The notes below the pieces were generated by a model. It made no database searches. It saw only the letters and a list, made by a program, of their open reading frames with translations, and was not told the DNA's origin. The translations under genes and the position numbers were made by a program. 64,000 nt of DNA from an uncultured SAR86 cluster bacterium (lineage in GTDB: Bacteria; Pseudomonadota; Gammaproteobacteria; Magnimaribacterales; D2472), in NCBI GenBank assembly GCA_902557645.1, contig CACEAP010000003.1, positions 135,936 through 199,935 on the forward strand, written 5' to 3'. Positions 4,274 to 64,000 of this stretch are shown here, in pieces (position 1 is the stretch's first letter; every line of letters starts with the position of its first letter).

Positions 4274-4551
4274 TCAACGACTCTTGGAACCAAGAAATAG
4301 TTTTCATTTGCATCAGGCGCATTTTTAAGGAATTTTTCTTTACGATTTTTTGCAGTCACTTCATCAATTCGAGTTTTAGCAGTCTTCTCTAAAGGGTTTG
4401 TTAATGGATCAACATTTGAGGTATCTATACTTTCTAGTTGATCTACAAATTTGATAATATTTTCAAGATCTTTAGTAATTTTTTCTTCATTCTCCTTATC
4501 AAACGCAAGTCTGGATAAGTAAGATATAGTTGCAACTGTTTCTTTGTCCAT
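4270..4551 (-). CDS. gatC: Asp/Glu-tRNA amidotransferase subunit C
   Basis: 93 aa, C-terminal NAP...YFLVPRVVE, upstream of gatA. Confidence 0.95.
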   Translation of the reverse strand: MDKETVATISYLSRLAFDKENEEKITKDLENIIKFVDQLESIDTSNVDPLTNPLEKTAKTRIDEVTAKNRKEKFLKNAPDANENYFLVPRVVE

Positions 4552-4631
4552 ATATAGGATATTATTACAATTAAGTTGTGTGATGTTAACTCAACTTAAT
4601 TATTTTTTATATTATTTTTTGGAATACTACA

Positions 4632-5681
4632 TTGGAATTTAACTTATTTAAAACTGTCAGGGGTTATTTCTCAAACGATCTTTCGATTGATTTAGGGACT
4701 GCAAATACATTAATTTATACAAAAGATGTCGGAATTGTTCTTAATGAGCCATCTGTTGTTGCTATAAGAGAGTCAAGAGGGCAAAAAACAGTTGTTGCTG
4801 TTGGAACAGAGGCAAAAAAAATGCTTGGAAGGACTCCTGGAAATATTAAAGCTATTAGACCATTATCTGAGGGTGTTATTGCTGACTTCCAAGTAACTGA
4901 AAAAATGCTTCAACATTTTATTGCAAAAGTTCATGAGCAAAGGTTTATCAAACCAAGTCCAAGAGTGCTTGTATGCGTTCCATGTCGTTCTACTCAGGTT
5001 GAACGCAGAGCAATAAGAGAATCTGTCCTTGGTGCTGGAGCTAGAGATGTTAAATTAATTGAAGAGCCTATGGCTGCTGCTATTGGCGCAGGATTACCAG
5101 TAGAAGAAGCAAGTGGCAATATGGTTGTAGATATAGGTGGAGGCACTTCTGAAATTGCAATTCTGTCTTTAAATGGGGTTGTTTATTCAGAGTCAGTAAA
5201 AATAGGTGGTGATAAAATGGATGAATCTATTACATCATGGATAAGAAGGAACTTTGGATGTGTGATAGGAGAATCTACTGCTGAGAAAATCAAACAAACA
5301 ATTGGCTGTTGTACTGAAGAATCAGATAAATTAGAAATGCAAGTAACTGGAAGAAATCTTGCAGAAGGTATTCCTGAAACATTTACTCTTAACAGTGATC
5401 AAATTTTTGATGCAATGAAAGATCCCTTAATGGGTATTGTAAGGGCTATAAGGAATGCTTTAGAGCTCTCACCGCCAGAATTAGCAGCAGATATTGCAGA
5501 GAGAGGTATTGTATTAACAGGGGGAGGTGGGCTCATGAGAGATCTAGATAAACTAATTTCAAATTCAACTGGAATACCTGTTATTGTTGCTGAAGATCCA
5601 CTTACTTGTGTTGCCAGAGGTGGAGGTCAAGCTCTAGAGATCATTGATAAATACAATATAGATCTCCTTTCTACTGAGTAA
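4632..5681 (+). CDS. mreB: Rod shape-determining actin-like protein MreB
   Basis: [39 protein letters not shown]; TTG start. Confidence 0.97.
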
Positions 5682-54089: not shown

Positions 54090-55100
54090 ATGGCTACAGA
54101 TAAAACTAAAGATCTTAAAGAGACCTTATCTCAAATAGAAAAGCAATTTGGTAAAGGTACTGTAATGCGAATGGGAGATAAAGAAAATCTCGATATACCA
54201 TCAATATCAACAGGCTCAGTTGGATTAGATATAGCACTTGGCATAGGTGGCATTCCTCAAGGAAGAGTAACTGAGATATATGGACCAGAATCTTCAGGTA
54301 AAACAACTTTAACACTTCAGATAATTGCTGAGTGTCAAAAAAATGGAGGAACGGCTGCTTTTATCGATGCGGAACATGCGCTTGATCCTCAATATGCAGC
54401 AAAACTCGGTGTAAATGTAGATGATCTTCTCTTATCTCAGCCTGATACAGGTGAGCAAGCTTTAGAAGTTGCTGATATGTTAGTTAAGTCTAATAGCGTG
54501 GATCTAGTAGTTGTAGACTCAGTAGCAGCCTTAGTTCCAAGAGCTGAGATTGAAGGTGAGATGGGTGATCATCATGTTGGACTTCAAGCTAGGCTTATGT
54601 CGCAGGCATTAAGAAAAATCACTGGTAATATTCAACGCTCAGGTGCAACTGTTATTTTCATCAATCAAATTCGTATGAAAATTGGAGTAATGTTTGGAAG
54701 TCCTGAGACTACAACAGGCGGGAATGCGCTTAAATTTTATTCATCAGTAAGACTTGATATTAGAAGAATTGGTGCAGTCAAAGAGGGTGATGAGGTTATT
54801 GGAAACGAAACCAGGGTTAAAGTTGTTAAAAACAAAGTCTCACCTCCCTTTAGACAGGCAGAGTTTCAAATTATGTATGGACAAGGAATTAATTCAGAAG
54901 GTGAAATTTTAGATTATGGACAAAAAATAGGATTAGTTGAGAAAGCTGGCTCCTGGTATAGCCATAACGGTGAAAAAATAGGACAAGGCAAAGTAAATGC
55001 AAGTAATTTTCTAAAAGAAAATACGAAAATTAGAGACTCCTTACTTAAGGCAATAAGATCTGAATATATTGTTTCAAATGCTAAGCCTGTAAAAAAATAG
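54090..55100 (+). CDS. recA: Recombinase A
   Basis: [37 protein letters not shown]; no intein. Confidence 0.99.
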
Positions 55101-58439: not shown

Positions 58440-59720
58440 TTATTTATCTTTAAAAAAATCAAGTATTGTCTTTATATCTGAAATTGGGTTTGTTGAACTA
58501 TCACCATTTCTTGATTTTAACTCAATTTCTTTATTTTCAAGATATTGCTTACCAATAATAATATTTAAAGGTATGCCAATAAGTTCAGAATCCTTCATTT
58601 TTGTACCATATCCATCTTTCCTATCATCTAAAAGTACGTCATAACCCATTTGAGTTAATTCTTTATATAAATTCTGAGATGCAGATGCTATTTCCTCATT
58701 CTTATCATAACCAATAGCAATAATATTTATATCAAAAGGAGCAATGTTATGTGGCCAAATAATACCTCTTTCATCATTATTTTGCTCAATAGCAGCTGCA
58801 ACAAGTCTTGAAACGCCAATTCCATAACAACCCATATATAAAGTTGAAGCTTTACCTTCTTTATTTAAAACATTTGCTTTCATGTCATCAGCATAAATTT
58901 TACCTAATTTAAATATATGACCAACTTCAATACCTTTTTTTATTTGAATTGTTCCTTTACCATCAGGTGAAGGATTCCCTTCAAGAGATTGAATATCTTC
59001 ACCTTCTTTAAGTAATAACTCAGTATTTATTGCAAATTCAGATGAATCACTTACTGCAATTGTATCTTCTCCATTATCAGCTAATACATGAAACTCTTCT
59101 GAACTATCTCCACCAATAGCGCCAGAATCTGCAGCAGAAATTTTAAACTCAAGACCAATACGCTCAAGTATTGTTTTATAGGCTTCCCTCATAGCAAGAT
59201 AGGTTTCTTGCAAAGATTCTTCGTCCATATTAAAACTATATGCATCTTTCATTAAAAACTCTCTTCCACGCATAATCCCATATCTAGGTCTTACTTCGTC
59301 TCTAAATTTAGTTTGGATTTGATATAAATTTAGTGGAAGTTCTTTATAGCTTTTTACATTATTTCTAATAATGTCAGTAATAACTTCTTCATGTGTTGGC
59401 CCAAGACAGAAATCTCTATCATGTCTATCTTTAATTCTTAATAGTTCAGGCCCCATTTTGTCCCATCTTTGCGTTTCTTCCCATAATTCTTTAGGTTGAA
59501 CCATTGGCATAAATACTTCTTGAGCTCCTGATGCATCCATTTCTTCTCTAACTATGTTTTCTATGTTTCTGAGAACTTTTAAACCAAGTGGTAGCCATGT
59601 ATATATACCAGAAGCTACCTTTTTGATCATCCCAGCTCTTAACATTAATTTATGACTAATTACTTCAGCTTCCTGAGGCGAATCTTTGAGGGTTGGTAAT
59701 AATAATTTTGAAAGCAGCAT
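58440..59720 (-). CDS. proS: Prolyl-tRNA synthetase lacking the INS editing domain
   Basis: [44 protein letters not shown]; only 426 aa. Confidence 0.96.
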
Positions 59721-59782: not shown

Positions 59783-60076
59783 ATGCCTATTTATGACTAT
59801 AAATGTTCGAAATGTGACTATGAATTTGAGTTAATTCAGAAATTTTCTGATGATCCTGTAAAAAAATGTCCTAAATGTTTTAAAAATTCTCTATCTAAAA
59901 TGATATCTGCGCCTTCGTTTAGATTAAAAGGAGGAGGGTGGTATGAAACAGATTTTAAAACTGGTAAAAAGAAAAACCTTTTAAAGGATGATAAAAAAGT
60001 TGAATCTAGTTCGAAGAAAGTCAATAAACAAGATAAAATTACACAAAAGAAGTCAAAAGATAAAAAGGCGGGATAA
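59783..60076 (+). CDS. FmdB-family zinc-ribbon protein
   Basis: [11 protein letters not shown]...CPKC...[13 protein letters not shown]; upstream of aspS. Confidence 0.9.
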
Positions 60077-60078
60077 TT

Positions 60079-61848
60079 ATGCGATCACACTATTGTGGTG
60101 AAGTTACATCAAAAGATCTTGATAGTAATATTTCGATATGTGGCTGGGTTCATAGAAGAAGAGATCACGGCGGTATTATTTTTCTAGATGTTAGAGATAT
60201 AAAAGGAATATGTCAGGTAGTAGTTAATCCTGAAAACAAAGCTGCATTTGAAATAGCAGATAAATGCAGAAACGAATATGTTATAAAAGTATCAGGTGCT
60301 GTTTTAAAGAGACCTGAAGGCACAATTAATGAGAATATGATAACTGGTGAGATCGAGCTAGAAGCAGATAACATTCAGTTATTAAATAAAGCAGCAACTC
60401 CAACCTTTCCTCTAGACGACTATCAAGAAGTAAATGAAGATGTTAGATTAAAAAATAGAGTGCTTGATCTAAGGCGCCCTGAAATGAATCATAGGATTGT
60501 TTCACGCTCTAAAATAACTTCATGTATTAGGAACTTTCTTGATAAAAATAATTTTCACGAAATTGAAACACCAATATTAACTAGAGCAACTCCTGAGGGA
60601 GCAAGAGATTATATATTACCAAGCAGAGTCCATCCTGGAAGTTTTTTTGCCTTGCCTCAATCCCCACAATTATTTAAGCAATTATTAATGATGGGTGGTT
60701 TTGATAAGTATTATCAAATTGCGAGATGTTTTAGGGATGAGGACCTAAGAGCCGATAGACAACCTGAGTTTACTCAGATTGATATAGAGGCATCATTTGT
60801 TGAGGTGAAAGATATTATTTCTTTAGGAACAGAAATGGTAAAACTTTTATTAAAAGAATTTGTAAATCATGATGTCAAAGAAATTCCAGAGTTAAATTGG
60901 CATAAAGCTATGGAGGATTATGGATGTGATAAACCTGATCTTAGAATCCCGTTAAACCTTATAGAAATATCTGATTTGGTTGCAAATGAGGAGTTTAAGG
61001 TATTCTCAGGCCCTGCAAATGAGGAGGGTTCTAGAGTAGTGGCGCTCAAGATACCGCAAGGAAATAACTTATCAAGAGGACAAATTGATGAGTATACAAA
61101 ATTTGTTAGCAAGTTAGGTGCAAAAGGATTAGCTTATATTAAGATTAACAATGTAAATGATTTAGAAAATGGATTACAGTCACCAATTCTTAAATTCTTA
61201 CATAAAGATACAATCAAAAGTTTAATAGAGAACTTAGATCTTAAGACTGATGATCTATTGTTCTTTGGTGCTGGCTCCAATAATGTTGTTAATTTAAGCA
61301 TGAGTAGTTTGATCAAAAAGATTGGTGGTGATCTTGATCTCTATACTTGTGATTGGGCACCTTGTTGGATTGTTGATTTCCCCATGTTTGAAAAGAATAA
61401 AGAAGGTAATTTAACATCCCTCCATCATCCTTTTACTATGCCAAAATCATCAATAGACGATTTAAATAACTCACCAGATACAGTTATTGCTGAGGCTTAT
61501 GATATTGTTTTAAATGGTTATGAGGTTGGAGGAGGTTCCATTAGGGTTCACAGTCCTGATATGCAACAAACAATTTTTAAAGCTTTAAATATCTCTGATG
61601 AAGAAGCTGAAAATAAGTTTGGATTTTTATTAAAAGCTTTGTCTTCAGGGTGCCCTCCGCATGGCGGCATAGCATTTGGTTTAGATAGGTTAGTTATGCT
61701 TCTAACGAACACTACAAATATTAGAGATGTTATAGCTTTTCCGAAAACTCAAAGCGCTTCATGTCTTTTAACTGAAGCACCAAATTCAGTTGATGAAAAT
61801 CAACTTGAAGAATTATTTATTGAATCTACATATATCGAGGAAGATTAA
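60079..61848 (+). CDS. aspS: Aspartyl-tRNA synthetase, probably non-discriminating
   Basis: [52 protein letters not shown]. Confidence 0.98.
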
Positions 61849-62585
61849 TGGCAGGTCATTCTAAATGGGCTAACATTAAACACAGAAAAGCAAGGCAAGA
61901 TGCTTCAAGAGGTAAAGTTTGGACTAAGGTTATAAGAGAGATAACAGTTGCCGCTAAAGGTGGTCCAGATCCAGCGGACAATCCTAGATTAAGACTGGCA
62001 TTAGATAAAGCAAATGCTGCGAATATGCCCAAAGATACAATAAAACGGGCTATTCAAAAAGGTTCTGGCACTGGAGAAATGGGAGAAATAGAAGAAATAA
62101 CCTTTGAGGGTTACGGTCCTAATGGCGTAGCAATATTAGTTGAAACAATGACAGATAATCGCAATAGAACAGTGGCAGATGTTAGGCATGCTTTTTCAAA
62201 ATTTGGAGGTAATTTAGGTACAGATGGCTCTGTTGCTTATTTATTTAATAAACTAGGAGTAATACAAATCGCAAAATCTTATAATGAAGATGATGTTATG
62301 GAGGTAGTTCTTGATGCTGGAGCTGATGATATGTCATCCAATGAAACAGGTTTTGAAGTAATAACCTCACCTACAAACTTAAGTGGTGTTTTAGAGGCTT
62401 TAAAAAATAAGAATATAGATACTATAGACGCTGAAACTACAATGAGAGCAGATGTTTTAGTAGATCTTGACTCTGAAGGTTCAGAAAAGGTTTTAAAAAT
62501 TATGAATTTTCTTGATGATTTAGATGATGTTCAAGAGGTTTATACGAATGGGGAGTTTTCAGATGATTTTGAGATTGAGGAATAG
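61848..62585 (+). CDS. yebC: YebC/PmpR family protein
   Basis: [37 protein letters not shown]. Confidence 0.97.
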   Translation: MAGHSKWANIKHRKARQDASRGKVWTKVIREITVAAKGGPDPADNPRLRLALDKANAANMPKDTIKRAIQKGSGTGEMGEIEEITFEGYGPNGVAILVETMTDNRNRTVADVRHAFSKFGGNLGTDGSVAYLFNKLGVIQIAKSYNEDDVMEVVLDAGADDMSSNETGFEVITSPTNLSGVLEALKNKNIDTIDAETTMRADVLVDLDSEGSEKVLKIMNFLDDLDDVQEVYTNGEFSDDFEIEE

Positions 62586-62587
62586 CT

Positions 62588-63016
62588 TTGCCAGTTAATT
62601 CAAGAGCTAAAGGTGCTAATTTTGAAAGAGAAATTGGAAATTTATTAGTTAAAGATCTTAATTTAATTAATCCTGTTAAAAGAATTCTTGAACAAACTAG
62701 AACAAAAGAATTGCCAGATTTAAGACTGGGAAGATGGTGTATTGAATGTAAGAGATATGGTGATGGAGGAGAGCCGCCTAAAGAATGGTGGGATCAAGTT
62801 CTAAGATCTTGTTCACAAGAGGATTCACTAATTCCCGCGCTAGTCTACAAATTTAATAGAAGACCAATAAAAGTAAGAATACTTGCTTCATCTATTAATT
62901 CAGAAATTAAAGATAATTTAATAACTATTGATTTATTATGGGAAGATTTTGTAAAGATCATTTTAGAGTTATTTCAAAAAGATATTCAACTTCATGAAGA
63001 AAGATTTCAAGTGTAA
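62588..63016 (+). CDS. Putative Hjc-like (archaeal/phage-type) Holliday junction resolvase, PD-(D/E)XK nuclease
   Basis: SRAKGANFERE...LPD...IECK motif set; TTG start with GAGG SD; occupies the ruvCAB position. Confidence 0.72.
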   Translation: MPVNSRAKGANFEREIGNLLVKDLNLINPVKRILEQTRTKELPDLRLGRWCIECKRYGDGGEPPKEWWDQVLRSCSQEDSLIPALVYKFNRRPIKVRILASSINSEIKDNLITIDLLWEDFVKIILELFQKDIQLHEERFQV

Positions 63017-63407
63017 CGATTTTCCAATAATTATTTTTTGCGAAGATACTGATTTCCAAGGAATTGTTTATCATGCAAATTATTTAAAATATTTTGAAAG
63101 AGCAAGAACACAATTTCTTATTGATCAAGGAATATCTCAATATGAACTTGAGAAATTAAATAGAGCCTTTGTTATTAGAGACATAAACTTGAGATATATT
63201 ACTCCAGCTAGGCTCGAAGAAAATCTTATTGTTAAAACCTCGGTAACCTTTATTTCAAAAGCTAGACTGCTTTTTTGCCAACATATTATTAACGTAAAAA
63301 ATGATACTATTATATGTCGAGGAGAGGTTGAGGTATGTTTCTTAGATTTAGATAAAAGTAAACCTAAGCCATTTCCTGAGAAATTATTAACAATTTTTAA
63401 TGGTTAA
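62994..63407 (+). CDS. ybgC: Tol-pal-associated acyl-CoA thioesterase YbgC
   Basis: EDTDFQGIVYHANYLKYFERART; upstream of tolQ. Confidence 0.93.
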   Translation: MKKDFKCNDFPIIIFCEDTDFQGIVYHANYLKYFERARTQFLIDQGISQYELEKLNRAFVIRDINLRYITPARLEENLIVKTSVTFISKARLLFCQHIINVKNDTIICRGEVEVCFLDLDKSKPKPFPEKLLTIFNG

Positions 63408-63413
63408 ACAAAA

Positions 63414-64000
63414 ATGAATGATATATCAGCAATTAATTTATTTCTTGAAGCTGGGCTCGTAGTCAAAAGCGTGATGGTAATTTTATTATTAATTTCTATA
63501 ATTTCATGGATCATCATATTTGAGAGATATCTTTTATACAGAAAAATTAAGAATTTAAATATAGAGTTTGAAAATAGATTTTGGTCAGGAGAAGACCTTA
63601 ATATTCTATTTGAGGAAGTAAATAATGATCAATTAATTCTTACAGGTTCCTCTAGCGTATTTAGAAATGCATTTAAGGAATTTAATAGATTGAAATCCGA
63701 TAATAATGTTACAGAATTAGATCTCGAAGGCATAAACAGATCAATGCGTGTGGCTATTGCAAGAGATGAAGAAGATATGTTGAAACATTTACCTTTTCTT
63801 GCAAATGCTGGATCTGTAAGCCCTTACATAGGTTTATTTGGAACTGTCTGGGGCATTATGACTTCATTTCAAGGTTTAGCGGATGCAACGCAGGCAACTA
63901 TTAATGCAGTTGCTCCAGGTATTTCAGAAGCTCTAATAGCAACAGCTATGGGTTTATTCGCAGCAATACCTGCTGTAGTTGCTTTTAATAGATTTACTTC
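63414..64000 (+). CDS. tolQ: TolQ, 3'-partial (not in the ORF track)
   Basis: ATG at 63414: MNDISAINLFLEAGLVVKSVM...FENRFWSG...SPYIGLFGTVWGIM...VAPGISEALIATAMGLFAAIPA. Confidence 0.95.
   Translation, partial: MNDISAINLFLEAGLVVKSVMVILLLISIISWIIIFERYLLYRKIKNLNIEFENRFWSGEDLNILFEEVNNDQLILTGSSSVFRNAFKEFNRLKSDNNVTELDLEGINRSMRVAIARDEEDMLKHLPFLANAGSVSPYIGLFGTVWGIMTSFQGLADATQATINAVAPGISEALIATAMGLFAAIPAVVAFNRFT

Follow-up and report, generated by a model that had tools for sequence, protein, structure and literature searches.

A phage-family PD-(D/E)XK nuclease at the ruv locus of SAR86 bacteria, a probable replacement for RuvABC

This report concerns one gene in a 64,000-nucleotide stretch of contig CACEAP010000003.1, from an uncultured bacterium of the SAR86 cluster (order Magnimaribacterales); the whole stretch is called the window below. 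The gene lies between yebC and ybgC and encodes a 142-residue nuclease of the PD-(D/E)XK superfamily. The evidence is best read as the in situ displacement of RuvABC, at the base of SAR86, by a junction resolvase domesticated from a phage, and the nuclease is probably a bona fide junction resolvase replacing RuvC. Its junction specificity and catalysis we infer by analogy with Hjc and phage resolvases, from which the mechanism proposed below is also taken. The original prediction, made from the letters of the window, had proposed just such a replacement of ruvC-ruvA-ruvB by a single Hjc-like, probably phage-derived nuclease. Its observation was borne out, and of the computational checks that it had named, all of which were carried out, none spoke against the claim.

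The ruv genes and the nuclease locus in SAR86

In the window's own genome (an assembly of 1.25 Mb in 17 contigs with a nominal completeness of 87.5%, probably close to complete), profile searches gave no match for RuvC (PF02075), RuvA_N, RuvB_C or RusA. When E. coli proteins were used as tblastn queries against this genome, RuvC had no match at E <= 10, and RuvA and RuvB had short, motif-level partial matches only; the RuvB proteins of outgroup genomes are 66-78% identical to that of E. coli. Matches of 20-29 bits to RuvB_N (PF05496) on other AAA+ proteins of the genome were rejected as RuvB, because RuvB_C is absent and the tblastn search with E. coli RuvB yields Walker-motif fragments only. 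The same picture was obtained beyond this genome. RuvC was found in none of the 101 genomes of the family and in none of the 151 genomes of the order (0/55 high-quality genomes, 21 genera), RuvB_C was missing from all 151 as well, and RuvA_N had no match above cut-off in them, with one match of 19.8 bits. Among 301 sampled Gammaproteobacteria with a completeness >= 90% (including four unpublished genomes, all RuvC-positive), 296 carry RuvC, which is retained even in genomes of 0.3-0.4 Mb; the five that lack it are all three sampled SAR86 genomes and two others, G320 and G433. A search for ruvABC elsewhere, in the own genome and in the 151 genomes of the order, thus found none, as expected if RuvABC was displaced.

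The nuclease, in turn, is a core gene of SAR86. A search with the protein recovered it from 93 of the 101 family genomes (24/26 of high quality, 10/10 genera), and one with the Pfam model from 138 of the 151 order genomes (53/55 of high quality, 21/21 genera). All eight single-contig assemblies carry it (G001, G008, G029, G102, G106, G107, G109 and G110), and among the related loci are those of the SAR86 single-cell genomes SCGC AAA168-P09 and AAA076-P13, and of TMED112; close homologues bear the label 'SAR86 cluster bacterium'. Its position is fixed: the gene follows yebC directly in 30/30, 2/2 (L042, L043) and 20/20 loci, i.e. 52/52, and tolQ lies downstream in all of them except L018, where the contig ends, and L101, where the bases are not visible. 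Sporadic presence at this locus was looked for, since it would speak against a domesticated gene, and these counts show the opposite. In three of the four families of the order (f1, that of the window, to f4) ybgC stands between the nuclease gene and tolQ. No match to ybgC was found in four f4 loci (L043, L101, L102, L103), and it seems to have been lost in this family, which has the smallest genomes (~0.9-1.1 Mb). The tolQ start lies ~15 bp after the nuclease match in L102 and ~105 bp after it in L043 and L103.

The ancestral arrangement was read from 10 kb around ruvC in 20 outgroup Gammaproteobacteria picked for long contigs. In these loci yebC adjoins ruvC in 19/20, ruvC, ruvA and ruvB stand together in 18/20, and tolQ follows ruvB or ybgC in 16/20. 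The full run yebC-ruvC-ruvA-ruvB-(ybgC)-tolQ is seen in 15/20, with ybgC detectable in 11 of these, so the gene order that the original prediction gave for many gammaproteobacteria proved right. In one outgroup locus, L084 (G481:C3), the ruvB match is broken into two neighbouring pieces that lie in different frames (4386-4715 and 4711-5382), which suggests a frameshift or an assembly error. Within this arrangement the SAR86 nuclease fills the ruvCAB slot exactly and leaves no spare DNA for remnants. The neighbours are the same and the Ruv genes were not found elsewhere in the order, as is expected of a non-orthologous displacement in situ.

Selection on the gene resembles that on its housekeeping neighbours. 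Between families the nuclease is 53-62% identical, yebC and aspS 53-60%, and ybgC 33-39%. Within the genus, dN/dS is 0.06-0.08 for the nuclease, 0.06 for yebC, 0.05-0.07 for tolQ and 0.11-0.19 for ybgC, at dS values of 0.8-1.7 that are partly saturated. The nuclease frame is not a chance open reading frame (ORF), because it has a 41-bit match to PF24608, is kept in 93/101 family genomes and shows this low dN/dS.

A few loci depart from the common pattern. In the own genome the nuclease is single-copy; G013 bears a second, divergent copy (G013:C4:52016-52417, a 142-aa frame, 38% identity) on another contig than the syntenic one, which may belong to a prophage or to a phage contig binned with the genome. 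A same-genus orthologue, L023 (G057:C1:637196-637609), has an in-frame TAG near the nuclease C-terminus; its assembly is 59% complete, and the codon may be a sequencing error or a true truncation. Four SAR86-grade matches of 46-73% identity (L209, L227, L243, L250) come from metagenome-assembled genomes titled Rhodospirillaceae, Thaumarchaeota, Halobacteriovoraceae and euryarchaeote, and are probably mislabelled or contaminated bins.

The features of the window are collected in Table 1. The nuclease frame begins with a TTG codon, which is backed by orthologues with ATG at the same aligned codon. Its start lies 2 bp past the yebC stop (62585), and its 3' end shares 23 bp with the start of ybgC; these coordinates agree with the original prediction. 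The genes aspS-yebC-nuclease-ybgC-tolQ make up a tightly packed run headed by aspS. The aspS ORF was named by its place, aspS being likewise near yebC-ruvC in E. coli, and tblastn shows it conserved upstream of yebC in relatives. Neither the window ORFs nor a Pfam search of the neighbours revealed a phage gene flanking the nuclease, in agreement with the original prediction, and the ORF run holds no partner methylase or other defence gene beside it. The recA gene lies 7.5 kb upstream.

Table 1. Features of the window around the nuclease gene (positions counted from the first letter of the window)
Feature	Position	Strand	Basis or remark
recA, strand-exchange protein	54090-55100	+	PF00154, 479 bits at G000:C3:190043-190828 = window 54108-54893
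426-aa ORF	58440-59720	-	opposite strand, precedes the zinc-ribbon ORF
97-aa CxxC...CxxC zinc-ribbon ORF, lysine-rich tail	59783-60076	+	just upstream of aspS
aspS (aspartate--tRNA ligase), 589-aa ORF	60079-61848	+	abuts yebC; named by place beside yebC as in E. coli, not by family search
yebC (TACO1/YebC family)	61848-62585	+	PF01709, 2e-56; PF20772, 6e-34
candidate resolvase gene, 142-aa PD-(D/E)XK nuclease	62588-63016	+	ORF list; Pfam PDDEXK_15 (PF24608)
ybgC-like acyl-CoA thioesterase, first tol-pal cluster gene	62994-63407	+	PF13279, 8.8e-21; PF03061, 4.1e-13
tolQ, cut by the window end	63414-63998	+	PF01618 (MotA/TolQ), 7.8e-36

Metatranscriptome contigs from 4/4 runs (4 studies) match the locus at >= 95% identity. 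One contig of 4297 nt runs from the 3' end of aspS through yebC and the complete nuclease gene into the start of ybgC, which fits co-transcription of yebC, the nuclease gene and ybgC, although a contig as such does not demonstrate a transcript. Stretches of the nuclease gene that are not covered by contigs in runs X1, X6 and X11 carry no meaning.

Family, predicted structure and phage relatives of the nuclease

The nuclease matches the Pfam family PDDEXK_15 (PF24608, 'phage putative PDDEXK endonuclease') over residues 4-110 with 41 bits and an E-value of 2.3e-10, the curated gathering cut-off being 27 bits. All 24 orthologues of an order-wide set drawn from the four families (alignment A1) match it as well, with a best E-value of 1.8e-12. 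The protein also matches phrog_244 (8.7e-14), labelled 'RusA-like Holliday junction resolvase'; this wording stems solely from the PHROG label, as the nuclease does not match RusA (PF05866). No NCBIfam model matches the nuclease, and no PADLOC defence model matches it or its two closest phage relatives.

The motifs named in the original prediction, G-x-x-F-E-R-E, PD and E-C-K, are indeed present as K8-G9-A-N-F12-E13-R14-E15, P43-D44 and E53-C54-K55. In the 24-sequence alignment (mean column identity 65%), P43-D44 and E53-C-K55 do not vary, nor do E13, K8, G9, F12, R14, Y87, K88 and F89. Residues E13, D44, E53 and K55 are candidate catalytic residues. The PD-(D/E)XK core has the order alpha-beta-beta-beta-alpha-beta, with a glutamate in helix 1, an aspartate at the start of strand 2 and (D/E)xK in strand 3. 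An AlphaFold2 model built from the 24-sequence alignment (pLDDT 87.1, pTM 0.83) has helix 5-23, strands 45-47 and 50-56, helix 65-75 and strand 82-88; this order fits the core and is followed by two C-terminal helices. Both the core and the E/D/ExK residues of the superfamily are thus found, and all strong fold matches are PD-(D/E)XK nucleases.

When the model was compared with the Protein Data Bank (PDB) by Foldseek, ranks 1-12 were all archaeal Hjc or Hje (2wcw, 1ob8, 1ob9, 2wiw, 1gef, 2wcz, 2wiz, 2eo0), with probabilities of 0.94-1.00, E-values from 7.1e-4 and TM scores of 0.43-0.59. In a library of viral structures the best matches were unnamed phage proteins (E 7.5e-12, TM 0.76-0.80), and the named matches include 'Holliday junction resolvase' and 'D14 protein'. 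The claim of an Hjc-type resolvase consequently holds for the fold, by the AlphaFold2 model and Foldseek, and fails for the sequence family: Hjc is the closest solved fold, and none of the 24 members belongs to the Hjc sequence family. PDB sequence matches to Bud20, at E 0.67-1.1, were taken as chance. The motif residues of Pyrococcus Hjc are given as E9, R10, D33, E46 and K48 (PMC10956419). The E...PD...ExK motif of the nuclease, with an arginine after the first glutamate, appears to match them, the pairing of single residues being our own reading and not the outcome of an alignment.

A two-copy complex prediction also supports a homodimer. It gave ipSAE values of 0.71, 0.71 and 0.69, and the best control 0.00; among proteins of solved structure, 20/30 pairs and 1/23 single chains attain this mark. 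The partner pLDDT was >= 84 and contact agreement between runs was 100%. The predicted interface is symmetric and comprises residues 100-128, in which strand 113-117 would pair with itself and helix 118-128 would take part.

Relatives of the nuclease are mostly carried by phages. An exhaustive profile search returned 1018 cluster representatives at E <= 0.001, only 12 of them at E <= 1e-30, and a collection of viral contigs held at least 363 relatives. The viral comparisons rest on 80 of these loci that were kept, in which the protein is full-length, 35-60% identical and has the same motifs; none of the 80 has aspS, yebC, ybgC, tolQ or ruv beside it. Two annotated viral contigs carry tail-fibre, virion, endolysin and DNA-ejection genes. 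Among the cultured phages of INPHARED, just 6 records were found (29-35% identity), annotated as 'putative PDDEXK endonuclease' or as hypothetical. In bacteria other than SAR86 the family occurs sporadically, in 2/297 other Gammaproteobacteria and 6/270 sampled Pseudomonadota, and none of these eight loci has ruv or tol neighbours. Phage-family neighbours were found at 4/6 Pseudomonadota loci, and one prophage-like copy adjoins a RecT-like gene; the term 'prophage' is supported for these four only, because the scanned neighbours of L255 and L257 gave no PHROG match. A below-cut-off PDDEXK_15 match in G368 (L044) was not counted as a parallel case, since that genome has RuvC and the context differs.

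In an unrooted maximum-likelihood tree of 24 SAR86 and 61 distinct viral proteins, a branch of length 0.87 with 100/100 support separates all SAR86 and six viral sequences (L106 and the L107 group) from the other 55 viral ones. Inside the SAR86 clade, f2 and f4 each make up a starred clade, and f1 one with 93/94 support, as expected for vertical descent. The phage nucleases of L106 (IMGVR_UViG_3300009603_000058) and L107-L116 are 49-60% identical to the SAR86 protein and fall in its clade; their contigs are candidates for SAR86-infecting phages that swapped the gene with their host. Read most simply, these data point to a single acquisition at the base of the order, followed by exchanges of the gene between SAR86 and its phages. 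The phage-to-host direction is inferred from the distribution of the family, because the tree is unrooted; the abundance of phage relatives in the viral collection agrees with the 'probably phage-derived' of the original prediction.

Proposed mechanism, recombination partners and competing explanations

By analogy with Hjc and phage resolvases, the following course may be proposed. The ancestor of the whole SAR86 order would have acquired the nuclease once, from a family mostly carried by marine tailed phages. The gene would have landed between yebC and ybgC-tolQ, in the ruvC-ruvA-ruvB slot, and RuvABC would have been lost. In the cell, RecA would make four-way junctions to which the nuclease homodimer would bind, the putative E13/D44/E53/K55 metal site of each subunit would introduce one of two symmetrical nicks, and the paired nicks would give ligatable duplexes without the RuvAB motor. 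In the window's genome RecG may serve branch migration and fork remodelling.

Of the partners that had been suggested, RecG and RadA, the first was borne out in part and the second was not. RecG is encoded in the own genome (671 bits, above cut-off), which also has RuvX/YqgF; it is not universal in the order. At RecG grade, taken as E <= 1e-150, matches were found in 40/40 genomes of f2, ~36/40 of f3 and 27/30 of f4; within f1 they occur only in g1 (2/2), the window's genus, g8 (3/3), g9 (7/8) and g10 (1/1), and 0/27 genomes of genera g2, g4, g5, g6 and g7 have one. What is new here is that RecG, encoded in the own genome, could not be found in five other genera of its family. Matches of ~1e-105 in these five genera were not accepted as RecG: they span no more than model positions 158-609, in frames of 1005-1118 aa, as would an Mfd-like protein. 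The frames were checked in five genomes of the RecG-less genera (e.g. G001, G004, G007, G027, G029), which are 90-96% complete, two of them single-contig, and all five retain RecA and the nuclease. For RadA/Sms (TIGR00416) the own genome gave nothing beyond weak matches of at most 37.5 bits on three other frames, one of them the RecA frame. RadA was found in 0/151 order genomes at E <= 1e-40 and so fails as a partner. Since RecG-grade matches are at 0/27 and neither RuvAB nor RadA was found in the order, g2, g4, g5, g6 and g7 appear to be without RuvAB, RecG and RadA together, and hence without any of the known motors of branch migration.

Several points weigh against a junction resolvase that replaced RuvABC. 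The PD-(D/E)XK fold serves many other nuclease functions; we know of no assayed member of PF24608, and PF24608/PDDEXK_15 was not mentioned in the literature searched. The structural match to Hjc is moderate (TM ~0.5-0.6), with only 2 PDB matches at E <= 0.001. Sequence searches of the PDB, by phmmer with the single protein and with the 24-sequence profile, gave no solved relative, and the Pfam models of Hjc (which we take to be PF01870), RecU and RusA match 0/24 members at E <= 1. In two phage contigs the nuclease gene stands among structural genes with no obvious recombination module. The position at the former ruv locus is circumstantial, the topology of the unrooted tree does not give the direction of transfer, and contigs of RNA libraries can come from contaminating DNA.

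These points leave room for other roles. The nuclease might be a general branched-DNA nuclease, active on flaps, D-loops and forks, reversed ones included, and employed chiefly to restart replication or to debranch DNA, with junctions removed mainly by other means such as RecG-driven reversal or dissolution. Viral resolvases are described as typically promiscuous on branched DNA (PMC3864405), this family is phage-borne, and RecG is kept in most of the order. However, RecG was not found in five genera that retain the nuclease, so no known junction-removal route would be left there; moreover, the closest solved folds are those of the junction-specific Hjc and Hje, and the predicted symmetric dimer suits paired cleavage. 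A general branched-DNA role is accordingly judged unlikely.

A second possibility is an unrelated housekeeping or defence role, such as restriction-like defence, mismatch or damage nicking, or RNA processing, in which case the ruv position would be coincidental and SAR86 would have no resolvase. The functional diversity of the fold would allow this, and UniRef labels one orthologue 'Restriction endonuclease'. The defence version dropped to low odds when the nuclease and its two closest phage relatives gave no PADLOC match, and neither a methylase nor a defence gene accompanies the gene in the tight aspS-yebC-x-ybgC-tolQ run. Unlike patchy defence genes, it is a single-copy, syntenic core gene of the whole order under strong purifying selection. 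An exact substitution in place of ruvCAB would be a striking coincidence, and RecA is retained, which means that junctions must be dealt with. An unrelated role is therefore held to be quite improbable. That the gene has no cellular function and is the selfish or decaying remnant of a phage, or a piece of phage DNA binned in error, as its phage family and the in-frame TAG of one relative (G057, L023) might suggest, is already contradicted by its conservation and synteny (21/21 genera, one fixed chromosomal position among housekeeping genes, dN/dS 0.06-0.08, no flanking phage genes, presence in eight single-contig assemblies) and has hardly any chance of being correct.

Comparison with known resolvases and meaning for SAR86

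As a probable junction resolvase, the SAR86 nuclease can be set beside several known systems. It resembles the archaeal Hjc/Hje enzymes (2wcw, 1ob8, 1ob9, 1gef, 2eo0) in its size (~120-140 aa), the PD-(D/E)XK alpha-beta core, the E...PD...ExK motif and the E-R pair in helix 1; Hjc/Hje are homodimers, as the SAR86 nuclease is predicted to be. It differs in having no detectable sequence relationship to Hjc (Pfam 0/24, no PDB sequence match), in being bacterial or phage-borne while Hjc is archaeal, and in an extra conserved C-terminal helical segment (118-141), which contributes a large share of the predicted dimer interface. Hjc needs no RuvAB for its work and is reported to rescue E. coli strains that have no RuvC (PMC10956419). 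With the marine phage proteins of PF24608/PHROG 244 it shares the profile family, the motifs and 35-60% identity over the full length. The SAR86 gene, however, is a single-copy chromosomal core gene of an order within a housekeeping operon, and elsewhere PF24608 is phage-carried or sporadic, mostly in prophage-like islands.

The RuvC resolvase is of the RNase H fold and is partnered by the RuvAB motor. The nuclease shares with RuvABC the genomic position, after yebC and before ybgC-tolQ, and presumably the biological endpoint. None of the three Ruv proteins was found in the 151 SAR86 genomes. RusA is a cryptic-prophage resolvase of E. coli that can replace RuvC together with RecG. The SAR86 nuclease likewise would be a phage-derived resolvase, and its PHROG match is labelled 'RusA-like', but RusA has another fold and family (PF05866 is absent from the own genome and does not match the nuclease) and is an accessory gene of prophages, whereas the SAR86 gene is a core gene of an order. 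RecU is the textbook example of a PD-(D/E)XK resolvase that stands in for RuvC in Firmicutes and Mollicutes; these lineages are described as retaining RuvAB, with recU far from ruvAB (PMC3403352). In SAR86, by contrast, RuvA and RuvB were not found, the nuclease sits in the old ruv position, and it has no match to the RecU Pfam model. RuvAB is given as nearly universal; it is lacking in <2% of the bacteria sequenced, for the most part parasites whose genomes are condensed (PMC3403352).

Precedents therefore exist in RecU for RuvC with RuvAB kept, in RusA with RecG, and in archaeal Hjc. What distinguishes SAR86 from them is the loss of the whole resolvasome, the replacement by a phage-family gene at the same address, the ecological weight of the group and its RecG-less subclade. 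The literature searched held nothing linking SAR86 with RuvC or the Holliday junction, and, judged by titles and abstract openings, papers on the loss of RuvABC or RuvC described no free-living lineage with such a replacement. SAR86 is counted among the most abundant bacterial groups of the surface ocean, and missing marker genes are reported to depress its completeness estimates (PMC11582366); the main text of that paper contains neither 'ruv' nor 'resolvase'. Replacement of Ruv would explain part of these missing marker genes.

Taken together, SAR86 would provide a clean case of genome streamlining by non-orthologous displacement in a free-living order, and an example of a phage gene domesticated into core DNA metabolism. 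It would also give a first functional handle on the uncharacterised phage family PF24608. In the five RecG-less genera, g2, g4, g5, g6 and g7, homologous recombination might, as a tentative possibility, be finished by a stand-alone phage-derived resolvase of Hjc fold with no dedicated branch-migration motor. If true, no free-living bacterium would be known to have a smaller toolkit for late recombination, and these genera would be a natural experiment in which branch migration is either dispensable or supplied by an unrecognised factor. These genera make the question of whether a resolvase alone suffices directly testable.

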